From: Candidatus Latescibacterota bacterium
Lineage (GTDB): Bacteria; Latescibacterota; UBA2968; UBA8231
Direction: 5' to 3'
DNA: 64,000 nt
NCBI GenBank assembly: GCA_965203175.1
Contig: OZ241867.1
Span: 4,224,001-4,288,000, forward strand
This document shows positions 15,289 to 32,472 of this stretch, piece by piece; within the stretch, counting starts at the first letter, position 1, and each line of letters begins with the position of its first letter. The notes under the pieces were generated by a model, which worked only from the letters and a program-made list of their open reading frames with translations, was not told the DNA's origin and searched no databases. The translations under genes were made by a program, and so were the position numbers.

Positions 15289-16155
15289 CTAATGCCCTTC
15301 GTGCGTGTCTATCCCATGGAGGGCGCTGGATTCAACGTAATACAGTATGTAGGCGAGGCCGATCCCTACGAGGAGGGACACGATGAGCTTGCCGCGATCG
15401 TGGCTGTGGAAATGGATCTCCGGTAGCAAGTCGCTCAAGGCAATGCACAGGAACGCGCCCGCCGCAAAAGCCAGCACATAGCCAACTGTTGCCCCTCCTT
15501 CTAGGTCAAGCAATTCCACACCTTCAAAGCTCGCTATAGCCACCACAGGGCACAGGATGGCAAAGCCGACATTGGCCAATGTCCGGGCGCGCTGGCTGTG
15601 ACCGGCGGACTTCATCATGCCGATAATGGAGTACGCATCGAGCGGCTTGTGCAGTAGAATGGCGAGGAACACCCCCAGGCCCGCCAATGCAACTCCGTCT
15701 TCATGCGACGGCCCTATCTTCATGATGGTACCCAGCGCGATTCCTTCGGTCACGGTGTGCACCCCTAGGCCTATGGCAACGCCGAACAAACTCCGCGAAT
15801 GGACGACACTGTGGCCGTGATCATGGTCATCGTCATCGTACAGATCGCTCGCCTCACTGCTGAAATCGTGCTGATGAAAGTGAAAGATGCGCAACAAGAA
15901 AATCATCAGGACCATGCCGAGCACCATCCATCCCACGGCTCTTTCTACAATGCCTGTCCCGGAGATGCGCTCGAGACTGTGGGGTAGCAGGTGAAACATG
16001 GCGACGCCGAGGATGAAGCCGGCCACAAGACTCATCACGATCTGAGTGCGCGTGTGCGTCATAGTACCCAAAGCCGCCAGCTTCCCGCCGAGAAAAGAAG
16101 CGGCAAAGATAGCGGCTGAGTAGGCCAACAAAACCAGTAGAGCGGTTGCATCCAT
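15289..16155 (-). CDS. ZIP family divalent metal transporter
   Basis: Eight TM segments, His-rich loop, HTVTEG and HKPLD metal-site motifs, DLLPE. Confidence 0.9.
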   Translation of the reverse strand: MDATALLVLLAYSAAIFAASFLGGKLAALGTMTHTRTQIVMSLVAGFILGVAMFHLLPHSLERISGTGIVERAVGWMVLGMVLMIFLLRIFHFHQHDFSSEASDLYDDDDHDHGHSVVHSRSLFGVAIGLGVHTVTEGIALGTIMKIGPSHEDGVALAGLGVFLAILLHKPLDAYSIIGMMKSAGHSQRARTLANVGFAILCPVVAIASFEGVELLDLEGGATVGYVLAFAAGAFLCIALSDLLPEIHFHSHDRGKLIVSLLVGIGLAYILYYVESSALHGIDTHEGH

Positions 16156-16281: not shown

Positions 16282-17535
16282 TCAGGTGCTTTCACACCTA
16301 TCGCCCGTACTGGACCGGAAGCGAAGATTGAGCAGCATATCCTCGTAACCACGGCGCAGGGCACCGGCGCGAAAGCGCCAGACGATCAGGGCGATGAGGA
16401 GCAAAGCGCTGCCCCATTGCAGGAACTGAATGGCCGGCGCATGGGAGGCGCCGAGGTTGACGGAAATCGCCAGACCAGCCGCGAGAAGCAGCGCGTCGAT
16501 GGCAATGCCGAGGACGACCGTAACCGCAATAACAGCGGCGACGTAGATGGATGCGAAGCGGGAGCCAAACTGGCTGACGATGATCGCGATGGTCCCCGTG
16601 TTGGTGGCCGGTCCAGTCATCAGAAAAATCAGCGCCGCGCCGGGACTGACCCCCTTGGCAACTAGCGCGGCGGCGATTGGAGTACTGGCGGAGGCGCAGA
16701 TATAAAGAGGGATGCCGATCAGCACCATGACCGGATAGGACAGCCAGCGGGCATACTCGTGCGCCATCAGATCGCTCGGAATCGCCAGAAAGAGCACACC
16801 GCCCAGCACGACCCCCACCAACAGCGCAAAGAGAATGTCGTCGGCGATCTCAATGAAGCCATAGCGCAAGATGTGCCTGACCAGCTTTTTGAAGTCGAGA
16901 CCTTGATTGTCGGTGGGGACTTCTGCCGCAGAAGAATTACCGGTGGATTGTCGGCCAGCGATTCCCTTCAACCAATTGACTAGTAAAATCTTCAGTTGCG
17001 AGGGACTGACGTAGCAATCATCCCTACCAGCTATGAGGGATTGGTGATTATCGTGCTCACAGTCATGGCAGTGAGCCGGGCCGCTCGCCTCGGCTTCATC
17101 TCGGTCGTCTCTTATCAGTCCGATGCAAAAGATACCGGCGACGACTGCGGTGATGAAGCTGATGACGGGCCGAACAATGGCAACGATGGGTCCGAAAAAG
17201 GCGTTGGTTACTAGGATCGAGTCTGCGCCTGTCTCCGGCGCGGTGATCAAGAAAGACATGCAGGACGAACGGGACGCCCCCTTGTTACGCATCTCGGCAA
17301 CCACAGGGACGACCGAACAACTGCACAGCGGCACGGGTACGCCGATGGCCGAACTCATGGTCACGGATTTTAGACTATCGTCGCGGAGCCAGCGGAGAAT
17401 GGCCTGACGGGAGATGAATACATGGATCAGGCCGGAAAGAAACAGCCCTAGCAACAGCATGGGCGCTAGCAACAAGAAGGAGGACCAGAGGAAGGCAAAA
17501 AAACTGGCCGATATCCCAAAAAATTCAAAGGTCAT
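16282..17535 (-). CDS. SO_0444/ArsP-like (DUF318) metal permease, copy 1
   Basis: PLCSCSVVP and PLYICASASTP motifs, His/Cys-rich loop; ATG 17535. Confidence 0.85.
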   Translation of the reverse strand: MTFEFFGISASFFAFLWSSFLLLAPMLLLGLFLSGLIHVFISRQAILRWLRDDSLKSVTMSSAIGVPVPLCSCSVVPVVAEMRNKGASRSSCMSFLITAPETGADSILVTNAFFGPIVAIVRPVISFITAVVAGIFCIGLIRDDRDEAEASGPAHCHDCEHDNHQSLIAGRDDCYVSPSQLKILLVNWLKGIAGRQSTGNSSAAEVPTDNQGLDFKKLVRHILRYGFIEIADDILFALLVGVVLGGVLFLAIPSDLMAHEYARWLSYPVMVLIGIPLYICASASTPIAAALVAKGVSPGAALIFLMTGPATNTGTIAIIVSQFGSRFASIYVAAVIAVTVVLGIAIDALLLAAGLAISVNLGASHAPAIQFLQWGSALLLIALIVWRFRAGALRRGYEDMLLNLRFRSSTGDRCEST

Positions 17536-17604
17536 TGTGATAAGAAGTAGACATTGACTAGAAAGGGCAAGCCTCCGATCAGAGTAGCTTCTGGGGGTTT
17601 GAAG

Positions 17605-17633
17605 TTGCGTTTTTTCTGCCGGACTACTAAAAT
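17605..17633 (+). promoter_or_regulatory. Sigma70-type promoter of leader ORF copy 1
   Basis: TTGCGT-N17-TAAAAT, 8 nt before ATG 17642 (near-leaderless); conserved in copy 2. Confidence 0.6.
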
Positions 17634-17641
17634 CAGAGGTC

Positions 17642-17956
17642 ATGCTAACGCGCAAAGCGGACCTCTCGACGTGCTCGGCATCCTCGCTGGCCCTGCTGGT
17701 GCTGACCGTGCTCTTTGCGGCTGTAAGCTGCGGCCTACCCTTCAGCCACCAGCTTTTCCACGAGAGCCACGTCGAGCCTGGGAACTGCCCGGCTTACCTG
17801 TTACAGAGCGGTCTATCGCTCCTTTTTGGGGGCTTGGCGCTCGTGCTCATAGCGCTGAGTGTCTCTGAGCCAAGTCCGTCCGCTCCGCGCACAATACCGT
17901 TACCCCTTTTTACCCCTCGCTTTACTCATCTCAACCGAGGCCCGCCCCGGTGCTAG
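17642..17956 (+). CDS. DUF2946/CruR-like leader protein with C-terminal RGPP, copy 1 (CPAY variant)
   Basis: N-terminal hydrophobic helix, HQLFHESH, CPAY, second hydrophobic stretch, Pro-rich tail, HLNRGPPRC end. Confidence 0.7.
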   Translation: MLTRKADLSTCSASSLALLVLTVLFAAVSCGLPFSHQLFHESHVEPGNCPAYLLQSGLSLLFGGLALVLIALSVSEPSPSAPRTIPLPLFTPRFTHLNRGPPRC

Positions 17957-18091
17957 TGCATCCACGCTGGTAAACCGCCTCAGTGCGTGGGTGTCTCTCT
18001 CCAGATTCAATTCGCGTACCATTAACCTCCCGTCTTGTGCGCAAGCCTAGGAAAGCGTGCATGGACGACCAAACCATTGGAGACTAGCACC

Positions 18092-18598
18092 ATGTTTAAA
18101 AGAAGTATGTCTGCGTTGAGCATTTTCGCCTTGGCTCTCTTTGTTGCGAGCTGCGGCGACGACGACAATCCCGTCGATCCTGACCTCCATGATGAACACG
18201 CTGAGGCCATCGGCCTGATTATACGCGATAGCGGCGCTGAAATCGTCCGCGTTGAAAGCGGTCAGGTGACCGGCGAGATTGAAGTCGGTCACGGCAAGGA
18301 AACCGCTCTGCTTTCCGTGCGCTTTATCGCCGAAGACGGCGATCTCTTCACCCCAGACGAAGACGAGGATTTTTCTCTCGGTTGGGAAATTGCCGACGAG
18401 AGCATCGCCGAAGTAGAGCATCATGCCGAGGACGGCGCTTGGGCTTTTCACATCCTCGGCTTAGAGGAAGGCGAGACTACTATCCGCATCAAAATCAACC
18501 ACGAAGGCCACGCCGATTTCGTCTCGCCGGAGATTGAAATCCACGTCAGCGAGGACGGACCCGGCGAGGAACATGATGATCACGATGACGAAGGGTAA
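18092..18598 (+). CDS. His/acid-rich lipoprotein, copy 1
   Basis: Lipobox LFVASC, DLHDEHAE and EEHDDHDDEG ends, beta-rich body. Confidence 0.8.
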   Translation: MFKRSMSALSIFALALFVASCGDDDNPVDPDLHDEHAEAIGLIIRDSGAEIVRVESGQVTGEIEVGHGKETALLSVRFIAEDGDLFTPDEDEDFSLGWEIADESIAEVEHHAEDGAWAFHILGLEEGETTIRIKINHEGHADFVSPEIEIHVSEDGPGEEHDDHDDEG

Positions 18599-18626
18599 AG
18601 CGGTTAGACCTGCATAGGTAGAGGTG

Positions 18627-18659
18627 ACGCGGGACCGGACGCAAGCACCGGTCCCGCGT
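18627..18659 (+). terminator. GC-rich hairpin after lipoprotein copy 1
   Basis: ACGCGGGACCGG...CCGGTCCCGCGT, no U-tract; repeated at about 19760-19789. Confidence 0.45.
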
Positions 18660-18705
18660 ACTTATGTCAAGCTTAATTGGATAGCCGACAGACAAAAGGT
18701 TGAAG

Positions 18706-18734
18706 TTGCGTTTTTTTGCCAGATCACTTAAAAT
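18706..18734 (+). promoter_or_regulatory. Sigma70-type promoter of leader ORF copy 2
   Basis: TTGCGT-N17-TAAAAT, 8 nt before ATG 18743. Confidence 0.6.
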
Positions 18735-18742
18735 CAAAAGTT

Positions 18743-19075
18743 ATGCTAAGGCGCAAAGCGGACATCTCGATAGGCTCGGCGTCCGCGCTGGCCCTGCTGG
18801 CGCTGACCGTGCTCTTTGCGGCTGTAAGCTGCGGCCTACCCTTCGGCCACCAGCTTTGCCACGAGAGCCACGAGAGCCACGAGAGCCACGTCGAGCCTGA
18901 GAACTGTCCGGCTTGCCTGTTGCAGAGCAGCCTATCGCTCCTTTTTGGGGGCTTGGCGCTCGCGGTCGTGGCGCTGAATGCCTTAGAGCCAAATCCGTCC
19001 GCTCTGCGCACAGTACCTTTACCTCTTTTTTCTCCTCGCTTTACCCACCTCAACCGAGGCCCGCCCCGGTGCTAG
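18743..19075 (+). CDS. DUF2946/CruR-like leader protein with CxxC and RGPP, copy 2
   Basis: HQLCHESHESHESH, CPAC, C-terminal HLNRGPPRC. Confidence 0.75.
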   Translation: MLRRKADISIGSASALALLALTVLFAAVSCGLPFGHQLCHESHESHESHVEPENCPACLLQSSLSLLFGGLALAVVALNALEPNPSALRTVPLPLFSPRFTHLNRGPPRC

Positions 19076-19212
19076 TGCATCCACGCTGGTAAATCACCTC
19101 AGTGCGTGGGTGTCTCTCTCCAGATCCAATTCGCGTACCATTAAATTCCCGTTCTGCGCGCAACGTCTAGGGAAAGTGCGCGTGGACGGTCAAACCATTG
19201 GAGACTAGCACC

Positions 19213-19719
19213 ATGTTTAAAAGAAGTATGTCTGCGTTGAGCATTTTCGCCTTGGCTCTGTTTATGGCTAGCTGCGGCGACGACGACAATCCCGTCGATC
19301 CTGACCTCCATGATGAACATGCCGAGGCTATCGGCCTAGTTATACGCGATAGCGGCACTGAAATCGTCCGCGTTGAAAGCGGTCAGGTGACCGGCGAGAT
19401 TGAAGTCGGTCACGGCAAGGAAACCGCCCTGCTTTCCGTGCGCTTTATCGCCGAAGACGGCGATCTCTTCACCCCAGACGAAGACGAGGATTTTTCTCTC
19501 GGTTGGGAAATTGCCGACGAGAGCATCGCCGAAGTAGAGCATCATGCCGAGGACGGCGCTTGGGCTTTTCACATCCTCGGCTTAGAGGAAGGCGAGACTA
19601 CTATCCGCATCAAAATCAACCACGAAGGCCACGCCGATTTCGTCTCGCCGGAGATTGAAATCCACGTCAGTGAGGACGGACCCGGTGAGGAACACGATGA
19701 TCACGATGACGAAGGGTAA
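19213..19719 (+). CDS. His/acid-rich lipoprotein, copy 2
   Basis: Lipobox LFMASC; nearly identical to copy 1. Confidence 0.8.
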   Translation: MFKRSMSALSIFALALFMASCGDDDNPVDPDLHDEHAEAIGLVIRDSGTEIVRVESGQVTGEIEVGHGKETALLSVRFIAEDGDLFTPDEDEDFSLGWEIADESIAEVEHHAEDGAWAFHILGLEEGETTIRIKINHEGHADFVSPEIEIHVSEDGPGEEHDDHDDEG

Positions 19720-19807
19720 AGTGGTTAGATCTGCTGCGGCCTTCATAGGTAAAAGCGACGCGGGACCGGACGCAAACTCCGGTCCCGTGCACTTATGTCA
19801 AGGCCAA

Positions 19808-22048
19808 TTGAATAGCCGACAGATAAAAAACACAGGCCGCAGGCTACTTTGGAAACTCACATCCATAATCGGCCTAGCAGTCGGTCCCGTTTGGGGCGAC
19901 CAGACTGGCGCTCTAGCCGGGCACGTGATCGACGCCGAAAGCGGCCAACCCGTCGGTTGGACTACCGTCGTCATTGAGGGGCTCGAACGGGCGCGGATGA
20001 GCGACGCCGAGGGGTACTTCTTCTTCGCCAACGTACCCGCCGGTGCGCACGTCTTGCAAAGCCTACACGTCGGCTACCAAGAGGCCCACTTTAAGGTGAG
20101 GGTCGTCGCGGGGGATACCACCCATGTCGATCTAGCTATCGGCTACGAGTCCCTGCAGGTAGAGGGGATTCTCATCGAAGGCGAATACACGCGCCCTGTT
20201 TCTCCACTCCAAGCACCCGAAGTTGTCTTCAGCGGCAGCAAGCTGCGGCAGAATTTGAGCCGCACCATCGCCGAGACCATTGACTACGAGCCGGGCATTG
20301 CCCAGCGCTCAATGGGGCCAGCGCCCGCGCGTCCAGTCCTGCGCGGGCTAGGCGGCGACCGCTTGCTGATGATCGAAGACGGCGAGCGCACCGGCGATTT
20401 GTCTGCCACCTCCTCGGACCACGCCGTGGCCATCGAGCCGATGACTACCGAGCGCATTGAGGTCGTGCGCGGCCCTCGCACCTTGCTCTACGGGTCCAAT
20501 GCCTTGGCCGGGGTTGTCAATGTGGTGCGGGGATACGTGCCCTCTGAGCAGCCCGATGGTTTGGGGGGATCTGTGACGTATCAAGGAGAGAGCGTCAACC
20601 GAGGTTTGTCTGGCGGCCTGACTCTCGAACAGCCGCTCGGCCCACTGGCGCTGCGCTTCGACAGCAGTTTGCGCAATGCCGACGATATTGCCACGCCGCG
20701 TGGGGTACTCGCCAATACGAACATCCGCACGGGCAATGCCTCAGTCGGCCTGAGTCTGGTTCGTCCTTGGGGGCACGTAGGCGCGTCCGGTAGCTTGTAC
20801 GACTCCGACTATGGCATCCCTCCCGATGCAGAGAGCGGCCACCCGGACGGCGTATCCATTGATCTCCAGCGCCAGCACCTCGAAGGGCGCGGCGAAATCC
20901 TCACCGGGCCGGATTGGCTCCAGCGCCTAGAATTGCACCACGCGTTTTCGCGCTATCAGCACGGCGAATACGAAGCTAGTGGCAACTTGGGGCTGGAGTA
21001 CGGGGTGCTCACGCACAACAGCGGCGCGCTGGCCCACCTAGATCGCATGGGGCCTTTTGCCAACGGCGTGACTGGCTTGTGGTTCGAGTACCGCAACTAT
21101 GCCGCGGCCGGGCTCAACTATACGCCGCCGGCCGAGGAATACGCCGGTGCTTTGTTCGCGTACCAGGAGTGGGAGCATGGGCCTTGGGCGGCCAATGCGG
21201 CTTGGCGCGTTGACGCCCGCCGCGTCGAGCCGCGCGAGGAGCGCTATTCGCGCCGGGTCGGCAGCATCCAGACGCGCGACTTTGCCGGGATGTCTGCCGG
21301 TTTGTCCAATCACTATCGCGCCAGTTCGACTTTGACGTTGGGCTCGACCTTGATGCGCACCTTTCGCGCTCCTGGCATCGAAGAGCTGTTTTCCGAAGGA
21401 CCGCATCTGGCCGCCTATTCGTACGAGGTGGGCAACGGCTCCCTCGACAGCGAACGCGGCCTAGGACTGGAGCTGTTCGCCGACTACCACCGCGAAGAAG
21501 GCCATGTACACGTGGCCGTCTTCCGCAACGCGATCAATGGGTTCATTTTTTTCAAGAATAGCGGCGAGCGCAGTCTGCGGCGCGCCGATCTTTTTCTCTA
21601 TCAGACTCTGGGAGAGCGCGTCCTCATGCACGGTGCCGAAGTTACCTTCGATTGGCATCTGGCGGAGCCTTGGAAAGTGGCCGGTACCCTCAGCTATGTG
21701 CGCGGCCGGCTCACTGATCTCGACGACGAACCTCTGCCGCGGCTGCCACCTCTGCAAGGGCACTTGGCCCTGACTTGCGAACCTACTGAGGCGCTGAGTG
21801 CGACTATTGACGTGCGCTTGGCTGCGGAACAGGACCAGATCGGCGAGTTTGAAGAGCCTACAGAAGGCTACGCAGTGCTGGATCTTTCGAGCCAGTACTA
21901 CGCGCAGTGGGGGGGCCGTCTGCACACCTTCGCCCTGACCTTGGAAAACGCCACTGACGCGGTGTACCGCAACCACCTCAACCGCGTCAAAGATATCCTG
22001 CCCGAGCCAGGCCGCAATCTGCGCCTGCTGCACAAGATATTCTTCTGA
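19808..22048 (+). CDS. TonB-dependent receptor (ZnuD-like), copy 1
   Basis: N-terminal carboxypeptidase-regulatory-like domain, RPVLRGLGGDR, SSDHAV, IEVVRGPRTLLYGSNA plug, PGRN..FF end; start uncertain (TTG 19808). Confidence 0.9.
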   Translation: MNSRQIKNTGRRLLWKLTSIIGLAVGPVWGDQTGALAGHVIDAESGQPVGWTTVVIEGLERARMSDAEGYFFFANVPAGAHVLQSLHVGYQEAHFKVRVVAGDTTHVDLAIGYESLQVEGILIEGEYTRPVSPLQAPEVVFSGSKLRQNLSRTIAETIDYEPGIAQRSMGPAPARPVLRGLGGDRLLMIEDGERTGDLSATSSDHAVAIEPMTTERIEVVRGPRTLLYGSNALAGVVNVVRGYVPSEQPDGLGGSVTYQGESVNRGLSGGLTLEQPLGPLALRFDSSLRNADDIATPRGVLANTNIRTGNASVGLSLVRPWGHVGASGSLYDSDYGIPPDAESGHPDGVSIDLQRQHLEGRGEILTGPDWLQRLELHHAFSRYQHGEYEASGNLGLEYGVLTHNSGALAHLDRMGPFANGVTGLWFEYRNYAAAGLNYTPPAEEYAGALFAYQEWEHGPWAANAAWRVDARRVEPREERYSRRVGSIQTRDFAGMSAGLSNHYRASSTLTLGSTLMRTFRAPGIEELFSEGPHLAAYSYEVGNGSLDSERGLGLELFADYHREEGHVHVAVFRNAINGFIFFKNSGERSLRRADLFLYQTLGERVLMHGAEVTFDWHLAEPWKVAGTLSYVRGRLTDLDDEPLPRLPPLQGHLALTCEPTEALSATIDVRLAAEQDQIGEFEEPTEGYAVLDLSSQYYAQWGGRLHTFALTLENATDAVYRNHLNRVKDILPEPGRNLRLLHKIFF

Positions 22049-22089
22049 GAATTCGTCTGGATTCACTTACCGGACTGGGATTGCACAGA

Positions 22090-23367
22090 ATGACCTTTGA
22101 TTTTCTTGGGATATTAACCAGTTTTTTTGCCTTCCTCTGGTCTTCCTTTTTACTGCTAGCCCCCATGCTTCTGCTGGGGTTCCTCCTCTCCGGCCTGATT
22201 CATGTGTTTATCTCCCGTCAGGCCGTTCTCCGCTGGCTCCACGACGACAGCCTAAAATCCGTCACCTTGAGTTCGGCCATTGGCGTACCCGTGCCGCTGT
22301 GCAGTTGTTCGGTCGTGCCCGTGGTGGCCGAGATGCGTAACAAGGGGGCGTCCCGTTCGTCCTGCATGTCCTTCCTGATCACCGCGCCGGAAACAGGTGC
22401 GGATTCGATTTTAGTCACTAACGCCTTTTTCGGACCCATCGTTGCCATCGTCCGGCCCGTCATCAGCTTCATCACTGCGGTCGTCGCCGGTATCTTTTGC
22501 ATCGGACTGATAAGAGACGACCGAAATGAAGCCGAGGTAAGCGGCCACGATCACTACCATGAATGTAGCCACGATCATCACCAATCCCTCATAGCCGACA
22601 GGGATGATTGCTACGTCAGTCCCGCGCAACTGAAGGGCTTACTGGTCAACTGGTTGAAGGGAATCGCTGGCCGACCATCCACCGGTGGTTCTTCTGCGGC
22701 AGCAGTCCCCACCGACAATCAAGGTCTCGACTTCAAAAAGCTGATCAAGCACATCTTGCGCTATGGCTTCATTGAGATCGCCGACGACATTCTCTTTGCG
22801 CTGTTGGTGGGGGTCGTGCTGGGCGGTGTGCTCTTTCTGGCGATTCCGAGCGATCTGATGGCGCACGAGTACGCCCGCTGGCTGTCCTATCCGGTCATGG
22901 TGCTGATCGGCATTCCCCTCTATATCTGCGCCTCCGCCAGTACTCCGATCGCCGCCGCGCTAGTTGCCAAGGGGGTCAGCCCCGGCGCAGCGCTGATTTT
23001 TCTGATGACTGGACCGGCCACCAACACGGGCACGATCGCGATCATCGTCAGCCAATTCGGCTCCCGCTTCGCATCCATTTACGTCGCCGCAGTCATCGCG
23101 GTTACAGTCGTCCTCGGCATTGCCATCGACGCGCTGCTTCTCGCGGCTGGTCTGGCGATTTCCGTCAACCTCGGCGCCTCTCATGCGCCAGCCATTCAGT
23201 TCCTGCAATGGGGCAGCGCTTTGCTCCTCATCGCCCTGATCGTCTGGCGCTTTCGCGCCGGTGCCCTGCGCCATGGCTACGAGGATATGCTGCTCAATCT
23301 TCGCTTCCGGTCCAGCGCGGGCGATCGGGATCTGTCAGCGCGAGACCTCAGCAGTGGTAAGTCTTAA
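22090..23367 (+). CDS. SO_0444/ArsP-like metal permease, copy 2
   Basis: Near-identical to 16282-17535, in inverted orientation. Confidence 0.85.
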   Translation: MTFDFLGILTSFFAFLWSSFLLLAPMLLLGFLLSGLIHVFISRQAVLRWLHDDSLKSVTLSSAIGVPVPLCSCSVVPVVAEMRNKGASRSSCMSFLITAPETGADSILVTNAFFGPIVAIVRPVISFITAVVAGIFCIGLIRDDRNEAEVSGHDHYHECSHDHHQSLIADRDDCYVSPAQLKGLLVNWLKGIAGRPSTGGSSAAAVPTDNQGLDFKKLIKHILRYGFIEIADDILFALLVGVVLGGVLFLAIPSDLMAHEYARWLSYPVMVLIGIPLYICASASTPIAAALVAKGVSPGAALIFLMTGPATNTGTIAIIVSQFGSRFASIYVAAVIAVTVVLGIAIDALLLAAGLAISVNLGASHAPAIQFLQWGSALLLIALIVWRFRAGALRHGYEDMLLNLRFRSSAGDRDLSARDLSSGKS

Positions 23368-23398
23368 CCCGAACTCACGTTAAAGGAGGATTCTATAT

Positions 23399-24646
23399 AT
23401 GAACACGCCGCGCAAAGTACCTAAAGTGCCCCTGTCAGAGAGACTGCCCGTTACTGTCCTGTCCGGCTTTCTCGGCGCAGGCAAGACCTCTCTTCTCAAC
23501 AACGTGCTCAACAACCGCGAGGGCATGCGCGTCGCGGTCATCGTCAACGACATGAGCGAGGTCAACATCGACGCGGCGCTCGTTGAGCACGGCGGTGCCC
23601 AGCTCTCGCGGACCGAGGAGAAGCTGGTCGAGATGTCGAACGGCTGCATCTGCTGCACGCTGCGAGACGACCTGCTCGCCGAGGTCTCACGGCTCGCACA
23701 GGAGAGACGCTTCGACTACCTGCTCATCGAGTCCACTGGGATCTCGGAGCCCATTCCGGTCGCGCAGACCTTCACCTTCGAGGACGAGAACGGTGTGAGC
23801 CTGAGTCAGGTTTCGCGCCTCGACACCATGGTCACGGTCGTGGACGCGGCGAGCTTCCTGCGGGACTACAACGCCGCCGAAGCGCTCCAAGACCGCGGTG
23901 AGTCGCTGGGCGAAGAAGATCTCCGGACGGTGACCGACCTGCTTATCGACCAGATCGAGTTCGCCGACGTCATCGTGCTCAACAAGCTCGATCTCGTGAG
24001 CAACGATCAGGCTCTCGAGGTCGAGGCTATCGTGAAAGCGTTCAACCCCGGCGCGAAGATCCTCATGGCGACGCGCGGACAGATCCCGCTCGAATGCGTG
24101 CTCGACACGGGCCTGTTCGACTACGAGAAGGCGGAGAGCTCCGCCGGCTGGATTCGAGAGCTTCAGGGTGAGCACACGCCGGAGACCGAGGAGTACGGGA
24201 TCTCGAGCTTCACCTATCGGACGTCGCAGCCCTTCGACGCCGAGAAGCTGTGGGCGTTCCTGCACGACGCCGAGAACTGGAGCGGCGTGCTCCGCTCGAA
24301 GGGCTTCTTCTGGGTCGCCGCTGACCATCGGATCCTCTACGAGTGGGCTCAAGCCGGCGGCGTCTTCAACGTGAACCCCGCCGGGATGTGGTGGGCGGCC
24401 GTGCCTCGCAAATACTGGGAGCACCCCGAGGGTCAGCGACCTGACCAGCAGTCGGGCTGGGATCCTCGCTTCGGCGATCGCGCGCAGCAGCTCGTCTTCA
24501 TCGGCCAGCAGATGCACGAGGCGGCGATACGCGCTCGCCTCAACGCGTGCCTGCTCGACGAGCGCCTCGCCGCCGCTGACAGCAAGGCCTGGGCAGCGCT
24601 CCGGAACCCGTTTCCGGAGCTTCTCATGGACGAGGAGGCAGCATGA
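23399..24646 (+). CDS. COG0523 metallochaperone GTPase (ZigA/YciC-like)
   Basis: [29 protein letters not shown] CobW_C domain; strong RBS. Confidence 0.93.
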
Positions 24647-25014
24647 CCGAGACTGTCTCATCCGTTTTGGCGAAAGGGTCACCGACATCTCATGTCGCAG
24701 GGAGAAGAGAGAACATGTTGATCAACACATCACCACGTCGCCCGAACCGCGAACGGGTTCGATATATCAAAGAGGCATTGCGCGAGGCGCTGAGCCTTCC
24801 CGATGACATGACAGTCACGGTCACCGAGCTGGCTTGTCTCGAAGAAGGCTGCGCGCCCGTCGAAACCGTGATTGGCCTGCTTCGGCCCGATGCACCACAG
24901 CTTCAGTGCAAGCTACACAAACCCGTGGACGCCGTTGACGCCAAGGATCTGGTCCGGGTCTGCACGGCGTGGGGCTTCGACGTCCAGATTGCCATCCCCG
25001 AACCACTCACCTAG
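24643..25014 (+). CDS. Small conserved CxxxxC protein
   Basis: [18 protein letters not shown] motif; lies between two COG0523 genes; true start may be internal. Confidence 0.65.
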
Positions 25015-25023
25015 GAGAATTAG

Positions 25024-26370
25024 ATGAATACGCCTCAAAAAGTACCCGTAACGATCCTCACCGGCTTCCTCGGCTCTGGCAAGACGACCCTACTCAACCG
25101 GATCTTGAGTGAGGAGCACGGCAAGCGCATTGCCGTGATCGAGAACGAGTATGGAGAAGTCGGCATCGATCAGGCGCTCGTCATCAACGCTGACGAGGAG
25201 ATCTTTGAGATGTCGAATGGCTGCATCTGCTGCACGGTGCGCGGAGACCTGATTCGCGTGCTCGGCAATCTCATGAAGCGCCGCGACAAGTTCGACTATG
25301 TGTTGGTGGAGACCACAGGGCTGGCCGATCCCGGTCCGGTCGCTCAGACGTTCTTCATGGACGACGAGATTCGCGCGGAGTTCTCGCTTGACGGAATCGT
25401 CACGCTCGTCGATGCAGCCCACATTGAGCAGCAGCTCGGCCGAAGCGACGAAAGCACGGAGCAAATCGCGTTCGCAGACATCCTCGTGCTCAACAAGACG
25501 GACCTCGTCAACGGCGAGGCGCTCGACGGACTCGAATCTCGGCTCCGAGACATGAACCGAATGGCGCGAGTCGTGCGCAGCGAGCAGGCGAACGTCTCCG
25601 TCGATACGGTACTCAACCTCGACGCCTTCGACTTGGACCAGGCGCTCGAGCGTCGCCCCACCTTCCTCGAGCCGGAGTATCCATTCGAATGGACTGGAGT
25701 CTATTCGCTCGATATGGGCCGCTACGAACTCAGCCTCGCCGATGGACCTGATCCGGCGATGTCGCTCGTCGTCGTGTCTGACCAGGGCACGGATGACGCT
25801 GCCCTCCGTGAGGGTGCGGAGTGGTGTGTGCGGCGGTACGCCGAACCTGCGGAGCTTATTGGCCCGGGGGAAGATATTCCGGTCGGAAAGCATGTGAACC
25901 TCCAGCTCGATTCCCCAGGGCGCAAGTCGTTCTTCTTGGAGGTCGATACACAAGTGCAGATTGGCCTCTACGCCCAGCACCTCGCGGAGGAGTTCGATCT
26001 CCAACTGACGAACGCGGATGGAGCGACAATCAGGCAAGAGGTCGAGCGAACCTGGGTCGCCCAGCACGAGCACGACGACGAGGTGGGCTCGATCGCGATC
26101 GAGCGGGACGGCGACGTCGATATCGTCAGGCTCAACGCTTGGCTTACCATACTGCTCGGTGAGCGCGGGGTGGACATCTTCCGCATGAAGGGCTTCATCA
26201 GCCTCGCAGGTGAGTCGCGTCGCTTCGTCTTCCAGGGGGTTCACATGCTTTTTGACGGCCAGCCAGAGCGCGAATGGGGGGACGAGCCCCGCCGCAATCA
26301 ACTCGTCTTCATCGGCCGCAACCTCGATGAGCAGAGCATGCGGCAGGGGTTCGAAGCATGTCTGATTTGA
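25024..26370 (+). CDS. COG0523/CobW family GTPase with an inserted domain
   Basis: GFLGSGKT, GCICC, ETTG, NKTD, about 130 aa insert, HEHDDEV, FRMKG. Confidence 0.92.
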   Translation: MNTPQKVPVTILTGFLGSGKTTLLNRILSEEHGKRIAVIENEYGEVGIDQALVINADEEIFEMSNGCICCTVRGDLIRVLGNLMKRRDKFDYVLVETTGLADPGPVAQTFFMDDEIRAEFSLDGIVTLVDAAHIEQQLGRSDESTEQIAFADILVLNKTDLVNGEALDGLESRLRDMNRMARVVRSEQANVSVDTVLNLDAFDLDQALERRPTFLEPEYPFEWTGVYSLDMGRYELSLADGPDPAMSLVVVSDQGTDDAALREGAEWCVRRYAEPAELIGPGEDIPVGKHVNLQLDSPGRKSFFLEVDTQVQIGLYAQHLAEEFDLQLTNADGATIRQEVERTWVAQHEHDDEVGSIAIERDGDVDIVRLNAWLTILLGERGVDIFRMKGFISLAGESRRFVFQGVHMLFDGQPEREWGDEPRRNQLVFIGRNLDEQSMRQGFEACLI

Positions 26371-27291: not shown

Positions 27292-28389
27292 TTATTTCGC
27301 CGCAGGCTGCCGAAGCAAATCAAGATCGGCATCAGACGCGGTATCCTGATGAGGATCCTTCTCCGTTTGGCACGCATCGAAGCGGCTTTGCAGCTCGCAA
27401 TCGTCGATTCCACCTTCCTCACCGATAAAGACCAACTGTGTCCCCGGACTCTCGTCGCCCCACGGCTCACCAATAATCAAACGCGCCCGTTTGCCGGCAA
27501 CGTGGACGATTCCCTTCCGACTGGGAATGTCGGAAAGGTAAACAATCCCTTTGGCTCGGTAGATAGTCGCAGGTAGAGTTTTCACCGCATCAAGCACAGC
27601 CCCACGTGACAGAGGTTTGTTCGTCGTATAGCACCACGTGTTGAAGACAAGCGTATGGTCCGTGTGGTGTTCGTGATGGTTCGCGTCAGCGTGGTCGTGT
27701 CCATGGGCCTCGCCGTCCGCATGTATGTGAACATCCAGACCTGGTTTCCCCGCAAAGCGGTGGAGGTCGTATGTCCCGATACCGAGTACCAAATCGAGCG
27801 GAACCTCACCAAAAGTAGCTTCGAGGATACGCGCTCTCGGAACGGTATCTCTGACAAAGTTTGCCAAATCCTCCCGCTCTTCATCATTGACCAGGTCCAG
27901 CTTGTTCAGCACCACAATGTCTGCCATGGCGATCTGGTCTACCGCGAGTCTACGATGTTTCTCGTTCACGTGGTGAATCTGCTCCGCATCGACCACGGTC
28001 AGGACACTGTCCACTCGGGTCCGAGACTGCAATTCGGCAGCCAGGAAGGTCAATGAAACCGCCGCCGGGTCAGATACGCCGCTCGTTTCAACGACGATAT
28101 ACTCCGGCGGGTTTGGGCCCTGAATCAACTGAACCGTTGCTTCGAGCAGGTCATCGCGAATCGAGCAACAGATACACCCGTTGGAAAGGTTGATGGTGGA
28201 TTCCCCGGAGACCCCAGAGACCAACTCGGCGTCAATGTTGATCTCTCCAAAGTCGTTGACCAACACTGCCACGCGCAATCCGTGGTCGGCGTTGAGAATG
28301 TGGTTGAGCAGGGAGGTTTTGCCCGCACCTAAAAAGCCGCTGATAATTGTTACTGGAATAGGTTCTTTTGAGTCCCGGCTTTCAGCCAT
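27292..28389 (-). CDS. COG0523/CobW family GTPase with His-rich linker
   Basis: [35 protein letters not shown]; ATG 28389. Confidence 0.92.
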   Translation of the reverse strand: MAESRDSKEPIPVTIISGFLGAGKTSLLNHILNADHGLRVAVLVNDFGEINIDAELVSGVSGESTINLSNGCICCSIRDDLLEATVQLIQGPNPPEYIVVETSGVSDPAAVSLTFLAAELQSRTRVDSVLTVVDAEQIHHVNEKHRRLAVDQIAMADIVVLNKLDLVNDEEREDLANFVRDTVPRARILEATFGEVPLDLVLGIGTYDLHRFAGKPGLDVHIHADGEAHGHDHADANHHEHHTDHTLVFNTWCYTTNKPLSRGAVLDAVKTLPATIYRAKGIVYLSDIPSRKGIVHVAGKRARLIIGEPWGDESPGTQLVFIGEEGGIDDCELQSRFDACQTEKDPHQDTASDADLDLLRQPAAK

Positions 28390-28439
28390 TGATTCCCTCC
28401 TGGGGGCGCGCGACCCCGTGGTGGCGGCGGGGTCGCAGC

Positions 28440-29000
28440 TCACCGAGCTACCGCCCGCCTGTAGGGCTCGATCGACTCGACGTCCATCGAGTAGCCAAAA
28501 CTGACATTGGTGATGGAGTCGTAACCGTCCTCACCAAGCTTGCTCGTATCGTGACCAGTCTTCAGGCGGCCAGAGATCCAGACCGGCCGCCGCATCTGCT
28601 GCAGGTCATGGGCTTGCTCGAGACTGCAGCGGATAACCTGGTTGGCCGGCGGCGGCGGGGTATGGAGACAGGCACCAAGATAGGGCATCAACAGGAATTC
28701 GCGGATCCGTGTTCCTTTGTATTCCAAGGGCAATACGTAGCCCGGAATCCTGACCGTCTGGCCATCGAGCTCCTTGACCACCGGTGCCTTGTCGAGCATT
28801 TCTTGGGCCTTCTCCCGCAACGCGAAGTACTCTTCGTCGCTGAGTGCGGCGTACTCCTCGTCGCTGAGTTCATCGAACACGGCGTAGGGATTCCAGCCCT
28901 CGGGAACGAGCTGGTCCCACAGGATCTCGCGCGGTGAGTCCGAGGCGGCTGCGCTGGTGACGAGCAGCAACACGAGCAATCGTTGGCGAAACATGGGCAT
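28440..29000 (-). CDS. DUF3299 family protein (ZrgD-like)
   Basis: WDQLVP, VRIPGYVLPL, EFLLMPYLGACLHTPPPPANQ; ATG 29000 with CAGGAGG RBS. Confidence 0.88.
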   Translation of the reverse strand: MPMFRQRLLVLLLVTSAAASDSPREILWDQLVPEGWNPYAVFDELSDEEYAALSDEEYFALREKAQEMLDKAPVVKELDGQTVRIPGYVLPLEYKGTRIREFLLMPYLGACLHTPPPPANQVIRCSLEQAHDLQQMRRPVWISGRLKTGHDTSKLGEDGYDSITNVSFGYSMDVESIEPYRRAVAR

Positions 29001-29035
29001 GGTCCTCCTGATCTGCGACTGAGAGTGTCTCGCGC

Positions 29036-30277
29036 TCACAGTCGAGTCGACAGTCCGTCGGCGAGCGAGTTCCGGTAACAGCGCCAAGCCGGCACCAGGC
29101 CAACGAGCAGGCCGGCAGTCATCAGACCGCCGAGCAGCGGCCATTCGCCCGCAGTGGGCAAGCCGATCGGCAGAAGCAGGCCGAAGCGCTCGACGATCCA
29201 GGGCTGCAAGGCCCGCAGCGCCAGGTTCTGCATCGCTACTCCCATTGCGATACCGACCAGTGTCAGCAGCGCTGACTCCATGATGAGTAACTCCATGACG
29301 TGGCGATAGCCGGCGCCGACCGAGCGCAGCACTGCCATTTCGCGCCGGCGTTCGTTGAGTCCGGCCAGTGAGACCGCCAGCAGACCCGCCAGCGCCGCGG
29401 CTGCGACAAGGATCGAGACGACCCGCAGCGCCTGTTCGCCAACGCGCATCAGGTCCCAGAGTTCCTGTAGCGCCACGCCCGGAAAGATGGCGAGCAAGGG
29501 TTCGGCACCATACTGATTGATGTCGCGCTGCAGCTTGAAGGCGGCGAGTCGGTTGTCGAGGCCGAGCAGGAAGGCGGTGATCTGGCGCGGGGTCAGGTCC
29601 TGACCCCGTGCGCGCCGGAGATCGGTCTCGACGCGGTTCCAGTTCATGTGCATGGCCTCGATCCCCGCGAGGCCGACGTGAACGGTGCGATCGACGGGCG
29701 TGCCCGTCGGTGCCAGGATGCCGGTGACCTTGAACGGGTGGTTGTCGTGGTCGCCGAAGCCTTCTGTCCCGATGCCGTGGGTAACGACCAGTTCGTCGCC
29801 GAGACGGTATCCGAGCTTGCGCGCCACTTCTGCGCCGAGGACGGCATCCAGCGTCTCGGCGAAGGGTCCACCCTCCGAAAAGCCAAGACGACGCTTGTCG
29901 GCGTAGCGGAAGTGCTCGAAGTAGTCGGTAGACGTGCCCATGACGCGGTAACCGCGGTGCGAATCGCCGAGCGAGATCGGGATGGCCCAGCGGACGCCTG
30001 GCCAGGTCGAGATGTCCGTATAGCTGGACCAGGCGACATTGCTGGTGGCGTTGCCGATGCGAAAGACCGAATAGAGCAATAGCTGCACCGAACCGCTGCG
30101 CGCGCCGACGATCAGGTCGGTACCGGACACGGTGTTGGCGAAGCTCAGGCGCGCGTGGGAACGGACCTTCTCGACGCCAAGCAGCAGCGCCACGCTGACC
30201 GCGATCGTCAGGACGGTCAGCGTGGCGGTATCGCGCCGGTTCAGCAAACTCTTCCAGGCCAGACGCAGCACGTTCAC
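29036..30277 (-). CDS. FtsX-type ABC permease (ZrgC-like)
   Basis: LAWKSLLNRR, DLIVGARSGSVQLLLYSVF, AIPISLGDSH, ERRREMAVLRSVGA; GTG 30277. Confidence 0.88.
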   Translation of the reverse strand: MNVLRLAWKSLLNRRDTATLTVLTIAVSVALLLGVEKVRSHARLSFANTVSGTDLIVGARSGSVQLLLYSVFRIGNATSNVAWSSYTDISTWPGVRWAIPISLGDSHRGYRVMGTSTDYFEHFRYADKRRLGFSEGGPFAETLDAVLGAEVARKLGYRLGDELVVTHGIGTEGFGDHDNHPFKVTGILAPTGTPVDRTVHVGLAGIEAMHMNWNRVETDLRRARGQDLTPRQITAFLLGLDNRLAAFKLQRDINQYGAEPLLAIFPGVALQELWDLMRVGEQALRVVSILVAAAALAGLLAVSLAGLNERRREMAVLRSVGAGYRHVMELLIMESALLTLVGIAMGVAMQNLALRALQPWIVERFGLLLPIGLPTAGEWPLLGGLMTAGLLVGLVPAWRCYRNSLADGLSTRL

Positions 30278-30984: not shown

Positions 30985-30996
30985 CGGCTCGCGTAG

Positions 30997-32437: not shown

Positions 32438-32465
32438 TTGACGATAACTGAAAATCGATTATCAT
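32438..32465 (+). promoter_or_regulatory. Promoter with Fur-family-like operator A
   Basis: TTGACG-N16-TATCAT overlapping TGAAAA-TCGA-TTATCA (32449-32464). Confidence 0.65.
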
Positions 32466-32472
32466 GCAATTC

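Follow-up and report, generated by a model that had tools for sequence, protein, structure and literature searches.

Bacterial zinc uptake is generally controlled at the level of transcription, by Zur, and the same holds for the known control of ZnuD-type receptors. To our knowledge, copper is the only metal with an experimentally shown arrest-peptide sensor, in the form of CruR and CutF. CruR (Bp2923) of Bordetella pertussis is a DUF2946 upstream ORF that controls the TonB-dependent transporter BfrG; its ligand motif lies 45 +/- 1-2 residues before the Arg of a RAPP motif, which is located 3 residues from the end of the protein (PMC9426467). CutF of Rhodobacter capsulatus is a DUF2946-like sensor that controls the translation of cutO (PMC9973294; preprint 10.1101/2025.02.05.636593). 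The RAPP/RGPP arrest peptides described to date also include ApdA, ApdP, ApcA and seven Streptomyces lividans peptides (PMC12992588, PMC10987492). When several motifs were placed in four arrest-peptide contexts, arrest was most robust with RGPP, and TonB-dependent receptors and metal-homeostasis genes were among the downstream classes enriched in the accompanying RAPP/RGPP survey (PMC12992588). The first-pass annotation of the locus described here proposed a metal-sensing arrest leader for which no characterised case was known. None was found in the literature searched, where the supplements of key papers may list members, but the general ideas, RAPP/RGPP upstream ORFs ahead of TonB receptors and CutF-like proteins for non-copper metals, had already been published (PMC12992588, PMC9973294).

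The window, meaning the whole stretch of DNA that was analysed, comprises 64,000 nt of a Candidatus Latescibacterota bacterium (GCA_965203175.1, contig OZ241867.1, positions 4,224,001-4,288,000, forward strand), and its relevant features are collected in Table 1. The small ORF with a TM signal and a Pro-rich tail that had been annotated is present as described; the RGPP motif, taken at first to be terminal, is instead near-terminal, because Arg, Cys and the stop codon come after it (...FTHLNRGPPRC*). Leader 1 has a basic N-terminus followed by a hydrophobic helix (residues 13-39), a predicted export or N-in TM segment. In an AlphaFold2 model built from a 33-sequence alignment (mean pLDDT 76), helices span residues 13-39 and 50-74, followed by an unstructured tail (75-104) in which 9 of the 30 residues are Pro. 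The loop between the helices reads S-H-Q-L-F-H-E-S-H-V-E-P-G-N-C-P-A-Y, with three His and one Cys and without CxxC (CPAY). The entire unit is duplicated in tandem (17599-18697 versus 18700-19828, 85-95% identity), and the second copy, absent from the first-pass annotation, carries a paralogous leader.

Table 1. Features of the leader locus and the surrounding island (positions in the window)
Feature	Position	Strand	Description
ZIP transporter	15289-16155	-	context, divergent from leader 1
SO_0444-type permease	16282-17539	-	context, divergent from leader 1
Promoter-like block, leader 1	17605-17633	+	TTGCGT 17605-17610, 17-nt spacer, TAAAAT 17628-17633
Leader ORF 1	17642-17956	+	104 aa: TM1, periplasmic (predicted) His/His/Cys loop, TM2, Pro-rich cytoplasmic tail, RGPP-R-C-stop
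Putative metal-ligand loop	17747-17788	+	codons 36-49, H36-x3-H40-x8-C49; between two helices in model
rut-like candidate	17860-17979	+	C-rich, G-poor; leader ORF 3' end and start of spacer; GC skew -0.40 to -0.46 (80-nt windows)
R-G-P-P codons, presumed arrest site	17936-17947	+	conserved motif; analogy with CruR toeprint
Hairpin 1	17958-17994	+	10-bp stem, GCATCCACGC (17958-17967) with GCGTGGGTGT (17985-17994); begins 2 nt after stop
Anti-Shine-Dalgarno (anti-SD) UCUCCA	17998-18003	+	just 3' of hairpin 1
Hairpin 2 (approximate limits)	18031-18067	+	RNAalifold helix, columns 154-161/190-196
Lipoprotein 1 RBS	18078-18091	+	SD UGGAGA 18078-18083, spacer CUAGCACC 18084-18091
Lipoprotein 1	18092-18598	+	168 aa, lipobox FVASC, Ig-like beta-sandwich, invariant His/Asp/Glu residues
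Promoter-like block, leader 2	18706-18734	+	TTGCGT 18706-18711, 17-nt spacer, TAAAAT 18729-18734
Leader ORF 2	18743-19075	+	110 aa paralog, HESHESHESH and CPAC, same ...NRGPPRC* end
Hairpin 1 of copy 2 and anti-SD	19077-19122	+	hairpin 19077-19113, anti-SD 19117-19122
SD and spacer, lipoprotein gene 2	19199-19212	+	ahead of lipoprotein gene 2 (19213)
Lipoprotein 2	19213-19719	+	98% identical to lipoprotein 1
TonB-dependent receptor	19808-22048	+	N-terminal CarboxypepD_reg domain; proposed TTG start at 19808 gives signal peptide
Context block, second SO_0444-type permease first	22081-26370	+	includes small ORF between ZigA and COG0523 GTPase
ZigA	23399-24646	+	equivalog, 620.6 versus cut-off of 600
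Second COG0523 GTPase	25024-26370	+	context

The near-leaderless promoter proposed for this ORF is represented by a promoter-like block at the stated place. Between the end of the -10-like TAAAAT of leader 1 and the ATG there are 8 nt, a layout that implies a leaderless or near-leaderless mRNA. Nearly all upstream regions that were aligned from relatives retain the promoter-like block and its distance from the ATG, and most of the divergent loci have -10-like hexamers 6-11 nt upstream of the ATG. A generic sigma-70 consensus scan did not detect the block (0 sites). One 1445-nt RNA-library contig of a single-copy relative extends from the leader across spacer and lipoprotein gene into the receptor gene; this is a weak indication of transcription across all three, and DNA carry-over is possible. 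The sequencing runs considered (RNA-library contigs only, in small shares) show bridging contigs in relatives.

The C-terminal motif is conserved across the leader family. Among 141 collected family proteins, 132 keep [RK][AGPS]PP (RGPP 93, RAPP 30, KAPP 6, RPPP 2, RSPP 1), with RAPP replacing RGPP in the more distant relatives. Exactly two residues follow the motif in 116 of these 132 members, and the Cys+3-to-Arg spacer is 46 residues in 110 and 44-48 residues in 128. Over 33 diverse members, H36, C49 and both Pro never vary, and almost every family member has either His or Cys at position 40; upstream of the Cys, 126/132 members carry H-x3-[HC]. A ligand set of a His cluster plus CxxC does not describe the family: the conserved ligands are His/His/Cys, and CxxC occurs in 38 of the 132 members and is absent from 94. 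The family is found in 49 of the 168 genomes of the phylum, all within one GTDB family, and a metagenome scan for it yielded only 3 loci. A single R[AG]PP in the last 8 residues is not rare as such, being present in 49 of 72,493 raw stop-to-stop ORFs of the genome, versus 37 for A[AG]PP. The motif is non-random here because it is conserved at a fixed position in 132/141 homologs. When the 49 raw ORFs were considered as further candidates, only the two leaders resembled real membrane peptides.

Reading frame, length and amino-acid motifs are maintained across 13 genera at 40-100% identity, and loci differ by synonymous changes in the codons used for the arrest motif (Arg CGA 36, CGC 17, CGG 3, AGG 1; first Pro CCG 37, CCA 14, CCT 6), so that selection acts on the peptide. 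These observations make it very improbable that the ORF is untranslated and the locus a non-coding RNA leader, with the hairpins and anti-SD forming a riboswitch-like or protein-bound attenuator, as the conserved, covarying structure of the spacer (described below) might otherwise suggest. Such a reading could also appeal to the fact that no SD precedes the leader 1 ORF; however, the missing SD fits a leaderless mRNA, since a -10-like element sits 6-11 nt before the ATG.

The first-pass annotation had likened the ORF to DUF2946 leaders, and here the profile and the design give different answers. Measured against the gathering cut-off of PF11162 (23.7 bits), leader 1 gave no match and leader 2 only 16.8 bits (E 0.012). 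Weak matches were obtained for 9 of 25 family members (best E 8.9e-5) and for 1 of 34 distant representatives (19 bits), and at E <= 1e-4 none of the 168 genomes of the phylum matched. When 1.84 billion representatives were searched with a profile, 36 matches were returned, a single one of which resembles PF11162, and that weakly; a word-indexed profile search brought no canonical DUF2946 members, and PF11162 was the precomputed label on 1 of 93 database matches. In a protein atlas, the nearest named cluster is DUF2946 at 0.91, a value that is based on 50% of its members and that we treat as a lead only. Moreover, neither the CxxC (CruR) nor the CxxxC (CutF) motif of DUF2946 proteins characterizes the family. 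The proposed CruR/CutF-type design, in contrast, is borne out by the export/TM signal, the ligand motif, the 46-residue spacer, R(G/A)PP 2 residues from the end and a structured intergenic region. As in DUF2946-type leaders, an N-terminal export/TM signal is combined with a RAPP-type C-terminus at a fixed distance, in the first gene of a metal-homeostasis operon, and as in RAPP/RGPP arrest peptides, a small membrane protein with the motif near its C-terminus is encoded directly upstream of a putatively regulated gene. Because the PF11162 cut-off is missed, the relation to CruR/CutF is one of likeness of design only, and judged by sequence the leaders appear CruR/CutF-like in design and outside formal DUF2946 membership. 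Surveys that rely on the Pfam DUF2946 model, which does not see this family, arrive at too low a number of such leaders.

At this locus, leader and lipoprotein gene are separated by 135-137 nt. The hairpin and pyrimidine-rich spacer annotated here, followed by the lipoprotein gene, are found in their assigned places, with the pyrimidine run CTCTCTCCA at 17995-18003, directly after hairpin 1. The position of hairpin 1 is that expected for the leading edge of a ribosome stalled on RGPP, and the RBS spacer CUAGCACC is complementary to the last 8 nt of leader ORF 1, GGUGCUAG (17949-17956). This arrangement is widely conserved. Of 58 unique spacers, 48 have a stem of at least 8 bp that begins no more than 4 nt past the stop codon, compared with 171 of 1160 random anchors (15%); compensatory versions of the stem are clade-specific (CACGC/GCGTG, CGCGC/GCGCG, CGCAC/GTGCG), and CTCC follows within 9 nt of the stem in 43 of the 48. 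The flanks of the anti-SD and SD co-vary between clades as well (TCTCCA/TGGAGA, GTTCTCC/GGAGAAC, GTTCTCCT/AGGAGAAC, CTCCAT/ATGGAG). In the structure alignment of the spacer, 98.1% of cells are paired, versus 28-52% in slid controls, and seven pairs are changed on both sides, versus 2.8 +/- 1.3 in shuffles (0/500 reach the observed value), although few lineages supply the covariation and these sequences also served to derive the structure. In hairpin 2, 4 of 7 pairs are changed on both sides, and the anti-SD helix is invariant within the close alignment. The fold of the single spacer sequence is no more stable than shuffles (z -0.42), and a per-locus anti-SD 6-mer match anywhere in the spacer is not significant against shuffles (p about 0.2-0.5); the anti-SD signal resides in its fixed position and in the covariation of its flanks. 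Terminator-like sites number 9 versus 6.9 expected, with none on the + strand after the leader. The genome has a Rho gene, and the C-richness of the ORF end in the rut-like candidate may come from its Pro/Ser/Thr codons.

In folding calculations, the RBS of the lipoprotein gene is occluded by the anti-SD: the SD has an unpaired probability of 0.07 at this locus and a median of 0.05 over 56 spacers, whereas the value for 22 other genes in the window is 0.375. Simple melting as the way in which the RBS opens was tried as an explanation and rejected, as masking the footprint of a stalled or a terminating ribosome raised the SD (>0.1) in only 2/56 and 8/56 spacers, respectively. This calculation is one of equilibrium folding with the covered nucleotides forced unpaired, and sterics and kinetics lie outside the model. 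Since the SD stays paired under masking, we do not claim simple melting as the explanation of control.

Alternatively, the ORF might encode a stable small inner-membrane protein, such as an uptake component or chaperone, in which RGPP merely slows translation or is incidental, and the downstream genes would be controlled by a transcription factor such as Zur and RNA structure alone. In favour of this reading are the conservation of TM hairpin and ligand loop, which resembles that of a functional protein, the separate promoter-like block of the leader, the presence of a Fur-family gene in the island and the occlusion of the SD, which in the folding calculation does not respond to ribosome masking. 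Against it, conservation is highest in the unstructured tail and in the arrest motif, whose distances to the stop and to the hairpin are fixed. We regard a stable protein as quite unlikely. Arrest peptides of such kind are described as not needing to accumulate, and RAPP-like motifs are reported to be strongly avoided in the proteomes of bacteria, arrest peptides being the exception (PMC12992588).

The conserved gene next to the leader encodes a His-rich lipoprotein. It matches no Pfam or NCBIfam family, and a fold search returned Ig-like/Big_2-like sandwiches of a generic kind, from S-layer and phage tail domains (TM 0.4-0.46), and no functional lead. Its start lies 42-293 nt downstream in all 42 leader copies (the window and 27 genome loci), a receptor homolog follows in 24 of the 27 genome loci, and in 21 of 23 further, more divergent loci the lipoprotein is the next gene. 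The zinc-type receptor context that had been annotated is supported in silico. Compared with solved chains, the receptor is closest to ZnuD (E 9e-36), and to the ZnuD model NF038289 it scores 169.8 bits, a partial match far under the cut-off of 950. ZigA exceeds its cut-off, a ZIP transporter and ZrgA are nearby, and the island holds three COG0523 genes in all and a Fur-family ORF. Among divergent members, leader L086 heads an operon with a ZnuA/AztC-like binding protein and L082 heads another receptor with a ZigA-like gene. The island intergenic regions share no AT-rich palindrome, and TTGCC-N7-GGCAA, which may not be the Zur box of the phylum, occurs at chance level (4 found versus 3.0 expected). 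From this genomic context, zinc is likely the signal.

The same arrest-leader mechanism might instead read another metal, be it copper as in CruR/CutF, or Ni, Co or Mn, with the zinc genes co-located rather than co-regulated. His2-Cys is also a copper ligand set and leader 2 has CPAC, but 94/132 members are without CxxC. OprC is the second-best solved receptor (5e-14) and the TonB-copper model scores 79 bits, yet ZnuD beats OprC by 22 orders of magnitude. The flanking SO_0444-type permeases belong to a family named Cu/Zn efflux, but the island contains the ZigA equivalog, ZIP, ZrgA and the Fur-family gene, and no copper oxidase, PCuAC or CopA-type gene was found among the scanned window ORFs (37 of 65 called). 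The L086 binding protein matches Mn-type models as well; however, the downstream gene sets of divergent members are of three different kinds, all of zinc-uptake type. A metal other than zinc is, on this evidence, unlikely, even though CutF-like clusters with His-only motifs are described next to Ni/Co genes (PMC9973294).

Based upon the parts of this picture that are directly supported, namely the anatomy, the conservation, the RNA covariation, the occluded RBS seen when the RNA is folded in silico and the setting among zinc-uptake genes, we consider it reasonably probable that the two small ORFs are cis-acting leaders of the CruR/CutF class, that is, membrane peptides that, while nascent, sense metal and arrest the ribosome making them. 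The leader peptides would probably tune the lipoprotein and receptor genes to metal supply during their own synthesis. In such a mechanism, the mRNA would be leaderless or almost so, and the peptide would insert as a helical hairpin with its N-terminus in and its loop out, placing the His-x3-His...Cys site at the periplasmic turn; the periplasm would thus be the compartment sensed. R-G-P-P would be reached 46 residues later, two codons before the stop, and the arrest itself would leave a Pro codon in each of the P and A sites (CCG 17942-17944 and CCC 17945-17947, respectively, if the CruR toeprint is taken as a guide). At arrest, TM2 would be just emerging from the exit tunnel, such that folding or insertion of the hairpin could pull the chain. 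The stalled ribosome would cover the C-rich ORF end and its last 8 nt, which would otherwise pair with the spacer before the lipoprotein start codon, and would abut hairpin 1. It may exclude Rho and/or loosen the anti-SD structure, with Rho termination and RBS opening each possibly taking a share of the control, and the lipoprotein, and the ZnuD-like receptor where present, would be made. The direction of control that we infer is negative: plentiful metal would bind the loop and release the arrest, the ribosome would terminate, the RBS would close, Rho would enter and expression would fall.

A more specific and more tentative version, which is possible but which we would not bet on, is that these are the first zinc-responsive arrest peptides. 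The two-helix hairpin would read periplasmic zinc via a His-x3-His...Cys clamp, and force-sensitive release of RGPP would control a ZnuD-type operon, with Rho shielding and RBS occlusion, the two outputs known from DUF2946 leaders, combined. The two leaders, with different loops (His2Cys versus a variable-length HES repeat plus CxxC) and their own promoters, would set two zinc thresholds: at one, only the lipoprotein would be controlled, at the other the lipoprotein together with the receptor and downstream zinc genes. If this zinc version is true, metal-sensing arrest peptides would be a general design with exchangeable ligand sets, and arrest-peptide sensors would extend to a little-studied, uncultured phylum. 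The leader would also represent a compact natural part (~450 nt) with natural variation in the number of His repeats in its ligand loop. The fixed geometry of arrest site, two codons, stop, hairpin and anti-SD is open to standard in vitro translation and reporter assays.

How does this locus compare with the known systems? Relative to ZnuD-type zinc piracy receptors, the receptor here misses the ZnuD equivalog cut-off, no Zur box was found in the island, and the operon is preceded by a translated leader with an arrest motif; nevertheless, ZnuD is the closest solved relative, and ZigA/COG0523, ZIP, ZrgA and Fur-family genes accompany it. With the RAPP/RGPP arrest peptides the leaders share the C-terminal RGPP/RAPP and the layout of a small membrane or secreted protein upstream of a regulated gene, whereas the tested arrest peptides regulate Sec/YidC or copper-related genes. 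In the available text of PMC12992588, the leader family is not among the arrest peptides tested, and the word zinc is absent from the main text.

Compared with CutF, the leaders have, as far as can be read from sequence, the same design of a nascent sensor that is exported co-translationally, its ligand motif in the periplasm and a Pro-rich stall site at its C-terminus; an mRNA structure likewise shields the next RBS, and action in cis is proposed here, as CutF must act in cis. Metal induces stalling of CutF and turns a detoxification gene on, whereas for uptake genes the sign would have to be reversed. In CutF, the stem-loop is situated right at the RBS, whereas the anti-SD here lies 75-200 nt upstream of the SD, behind a separate hairpin. 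In addition, CutF stalling is EF-P-dependent, whereas RAPP/RGPP arrest is reported to be refractory to EF-P.

CruR differs from the present leaders in having RAPP rather than RGPP, an invariant CxxC rather than His-x3-His...Cys, a soluble exported domain rather than a second TM helix, and a copper rather than a zinc context. Here, moreover, a lipoprotein gene lies between leader and receptor, an anti-SD occludes the next RBS, PF11162 is under cut-off, the phylum is another one and the paralogs stand in tandem. In both cases, a small exported protein is the first gene of an operon with a TonB-dependent receptor downstream; a ligand motif is followed after ~45 residues by R-x-P-P, 2-3 residues before the stop; and a long intergenic region follows (162 nt in CruR, 135-137 nt here). 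The uptake logic of CruR, in which expression is off when metal is present, would fit as well, and a C-rich region and a Rho gene would be at hand for a possible Rho-dependent step.

A small ORF with a transmembrane helix, a Pro-rich end and RGPP, followed by a hairpin and a lipoprotein gene, had been proposed in the first-pass annotation, and all of these can be read at 17642-18092 of the window. The encoded peptide, leader 1, consists in order of MLTRKADLSTCSASS, a hydrophobic helix, SHQLFHESHVEPGNCPAY, a second hydrophobic helix and SEPSPSAPRTIPLPLFTPRFTHLNRGPPRC. Its RGPP motif, presumed to arrest the ribosome, is present but not strictly terminal as had been claimed, being followed by Arg-Cys and the stop codon. 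Moreover, the whole leader-lipoprotein unit is duplicated in tandem, which had gone unrecorded. Identity between the two copies in this genome is 98% for the lipoproteins and 80% for the leaders, a pattern that suggests gene conversion sparing the leaders. A layout of two leaders, one CPAY-type and one CPAC-type, is seen again in 14 of 27 related genome loci and is therefore an old arrangement.

Features of the leader operon and the surrounding zinc-type island
Feature	Position in window	Strand	Remarks
SO_0444-type permease gene copies	16297-17539, 22086-23328		inverted, bracketing the operon; 92% identity over 1243 nt
TTGAC-N7-GGCAA element	17554-17570		in the divergent permease/leader intergenic region, ~35 nt 5' of the -35-like hexamer
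Promoter-like block			TTGCGT-17 nt-TAAAAT; 3' end 8 nt upstream of leader 1 ATG
Duplicated leader-lipoprotein unit	17599-19828		~1.12 kb, 85-95% identity
Leader 1 ORF	17642-17956	+	104 residues; sequence reading
Hairpin 1	17958-17967 with 17985-17994		perfect 10 bp; starts 2 nt past stop
Lipoprotein gene 1	18092-18598		start 18092
Leader 2	18743-19075		110 aa, with HESHESHESH and CPAC
Variable loop repeats	17757 (leader 1), 18856-18890 (leader 2)
Lipoprotein gene 2	19213-19719		upstream of receptor
GC-rich 9-12 bp hairpins	18627-18659, 19761-19787		one after each lipoprotein gene; inside repeat family 18609-18697 / 19740-19828
Receptor start, proposed	19808		TTG
Third COG0523 GTPase	27292-28443	-
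Protein with DUF3299 domain	28440-30455	-	671 aa
ZrgA-family zinc uptake protein	30997-31893	-
MerC-like membrane protein	31853-32290	-
Fur-family ORF with adjoining COG0523 remnant	32464-32904		ORF 98 aa; PF01475, E 6e-13, profile positions 6-96 of 121; remnant 47 codons

A word-indexed search gave 103 protein clusters of the leader family, and a profile search of 1.84 billion representatives gave 36 clusters at 50% identity; family statistics were taken over 141 collected proteins. An [RK][AGPS]PP motif is found in 132 of the 141 (RGPP 93, RAPP 30, KAPP 6, RPPP 2, RSPP 1), with exactly two residues beyond it in 116/132. The distance from Cys+3 to the Arg is 46 residues in 110/132 and 44-48 in 128/132. 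H36, C49 and the two Pro are the sole invariant residues in a set of 33 diverse members; position 40 carries His, or Cys in a few, and CxxC occurs in 38 of the 132 motif-bearing proteins. The family therefore keeps His-x3-His...Cys as its ligands, and acidic residues between them are conserved as well. This set of two His and one Cys stands in place of a His cluster with CxxC. AlphaFold2 predicts a helical hairpin (H13-39 / H50-74) with the putative ligands at its turn and a loose tail. The arrest-motif codons differ synonymously among loci and the reading frame is retained in 13 genera; it is therefore a translated peptide that is under selection. Orthologs differ in how many His-Glu/Gly-Ser repeats their ligand loop contains (proteins of 104, 107, 110 and 113 aa), and in relatives' contigs 18 nt are deleted at 18858 and 9 nt inserted at 17757; this variable 9-nt repeat could tune metal affinity.

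The nine proteins lacking the arrest motif look like out-of-frame calls of the same DNA. In five of these database proteins (P0043, P0064, P0078, P0090, P0092) the frame shifts within the tail or ahead of it, with a T-run nearby in those traced, and then runs past the normal stop into hairpin 1; in one related locus, L020, RGPP is intact and reading continues beyond the normal stop. Such anomalies are most simply explained as homopolymer assembly errors. Of 168 genomes in the phylum, 49 were positive for the family profile, all of them from one GTDB family (48 of 75 genomes, the window's own excluded) and from 13 of 49 genera; the database records of relatives are labeled Latescibacterota or Gemmatimonadota. 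The leader is a real, conserved and well-formed candidate arrest leader.

What does the leader accompany? The lipoprotein gene lies 42-293 nt downstream of every one of the 42 leader copies found in the window and in 27 genome loci, and a receptor homolog then follows in 24 of the 27; the other three loci end too early or fall below the coverage filter. Of 23 loci of greater divergence, 21 have the lipoprotein gene next to the leader, and the receptor lies directly after in 13 and ~4.8 kb further on in two; it was not found within the fetched 3-5 kb in three, and three loci end early. Thus, the conserved partner of the leader is the lipoprotein. This protein matched no family in Pfam or NCBIfam, and is better conserved (61-98%) than the leader. 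It has a lipobox, an Ig-like beta-sandwich with invariant His, Asp and Glu (six His in all; pLDDT above 90 over residues 40-160 of the predicted fold) and an acidic, His-rich C-terminal tail. It is a candidate zinc-binding partner of the receptor, at the surface or in the periplasm. Among solved structures the receptor is closest to ZnuD (E 9e-36), followed by the copper porin OprC (5e-14). The hairpins after the lipoprotein genes have a T-run on the minus strand only, so they are not canonical terminators for the operon; they may be partial terminators or RNA-stability elements setting the lipoprotein:receptor ratio.

The spacer between leader and lipoprotein is predicted to hide the lipoprotein RBS. 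Four elements make up the fold of an alignment of 22 spacers: hairpin 1, with CTCTCTCCA directly 3' of it; hairpin 2; a 6-bp helix between UCUCCA just 3' of hairpin 1 and the SD UGGAGA; and a helix of 7-8 bp that pairs the final 8 nt of the leader ORF (GGUGCUAG) with the 8 nt preceding the lipoprotein ATG (CUAGCACC). In this alignment 98.1% of cells are paired (28-52% in slid controls) and both sides change in 7 pairs versus 2.8 +/- 1.3 in shuffles (observed value reached in 0/500), a test that leans in the structure's favour because the fold came from the same 22 sequences. A stem of at least 8 bp starting within 4 nt of the stop is present in 48 of 58 unique spacers versus 171 of 1160 random anchors, with CTCC no more than 9 nt beyond it in 43 of the 48. 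The hairpin 1 stem differs among clades with compensatory changes, and anti-SD flanks co-vary with SD flanks (TCTCCA/TGGAGA, GTTCTCC/GGAGAAC, GTTCTCCT/AGGAGAAC, CTCCAT/ATGGAG). The predicted unpaired probability of the SD has a median of 0.05 over 56 spacers, versus 0.375 for 22 other SD-bearing genes of the window, none at or below 0.1. Second leader copies at five loci (L001, L006, L008, L016, L021) have spacers of 209-293 nt, with an insertion of ~70-160 nt within or beside hairpin 1 that may be a small mobile repeat; anti-SD and SD are retained. Upstream of the leader, the TTGAC-N7-GGCAA element is conserved, reading TTGCC-N7-GGCAA in most relatives. With 4 occurrences in the window for 3.0 expected, patterns of this type show no enrichment there. 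The element could be a regulator site or a piece of the permease promoter.

How might arrest control these genes? A ribosome arrested with residue 101 in its P site would have TM2 just leaving the exit tunnel, which holds roughly 30-35 residues. The motif, two codons, stop and hairpin keep a fixed geometry family-wide. By analogy with the CruR toeprint, which places Pro codons in the P and A sites (PMC12992588), an arrested ribosome would reach about the stop codon, cover the C-rich ORF end (GC skew to -0.46) with part or all of GGUGCUAG, and contact the base of hairpin 1. It could thereby shield the transcript from Rho, whose gene is present in the genome, as in CruR, and weaken the RBS-hiding three-way junction, as in CutF. 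Zinc bound to the loop would promote release, turning the genes off when zinc is plentiful. An equilibrium folding calculation did not reproduce RBS opening, and we therefore infer both the division between Rho and RBS and the sign of the response.

The metal is assigned by association, from gene content. The island contains a ZIP transporter, a ZigA equivalog above its cut-off, two more COG0523 genes, a ZrgA-family gene, a DUF3299 gene and a short Fur-family ORF. Other genes follow the most divergent family members. At the related locus L082 (leader stop at oriented position 1716) these are a different TonB receptor, one unknown gene and a ZigA-like GTPase; at L086 (stop at 3276) a ZnuA/AztC-like binding protein comes after an unknown protein of 380 aa. 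L086 also has an anti-SD-like CCUCCG immediately 3' of the leader stop, in reach of the leader's ribosome. That three different downstream gene sets are all of zinc uptake is the main argument for zinc as the putative sensed metal. The minus-strand genes at 27292-32290 form a second zinc-type cluster. Directly after the Fur-family ORF lies a 47-codon remnant with the start and end of the COG0523 gene at 25024-26370, apparently a COG0523 copy that has lost its interior, beside a possibly truncated Zur-like gene.

Control by arrest peptides is in print for copper (PMC9426467; PMC9973294; 10.1101/2025.02.05.636593). RAPP/RGPP uORFs are described as enriched upstream of TonB receptors and metal genes (PMC12992588), and CutF-like clusters with His-only motifs as adjoining Ni/Co genes (PMC9973294). 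The word zinc is absent from the main text of these four papers, and a literature search combining arrest peptides with zinc found no relevant report, in agreement with the earlier statement that no characterised case was known. A Zur-regulon table for Caulobacter lists two DUF2946 genes with lower expression in the zur mutant, one of them adjoining czr efflux genes and having a predicted Zur motif (PMC4176598), which hints at zinc-linked DUF2946 members elsewhere.

The proposed search with the DUF2946 Pfam model did not place the leaders in that family: leader 2 scored 16.8 bits against a cut-off of 23.7 and leader 1 was unmatched. The model gave weak matches in 9 of 25 family members, a match in 1 of 34 distant representatives and none among the 168 genomes of the phylum. 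CruR has as its defining features an export signal, CxxC, a spacer of 45 residues and RAPP three residues short of the C-terminus (PMC9426467), and the leader design agrees with it point for point save for the ligand motif and the Gly. With this likeness and Pfam scores below the cut-off, we file the leader as CruR/CutF-like in its working rather than as a shown member. A leader of the CruR/CutF kind that is invisible to Pfam and set among zinc-uptake genes is a new variant, and its proposed function is plausible.
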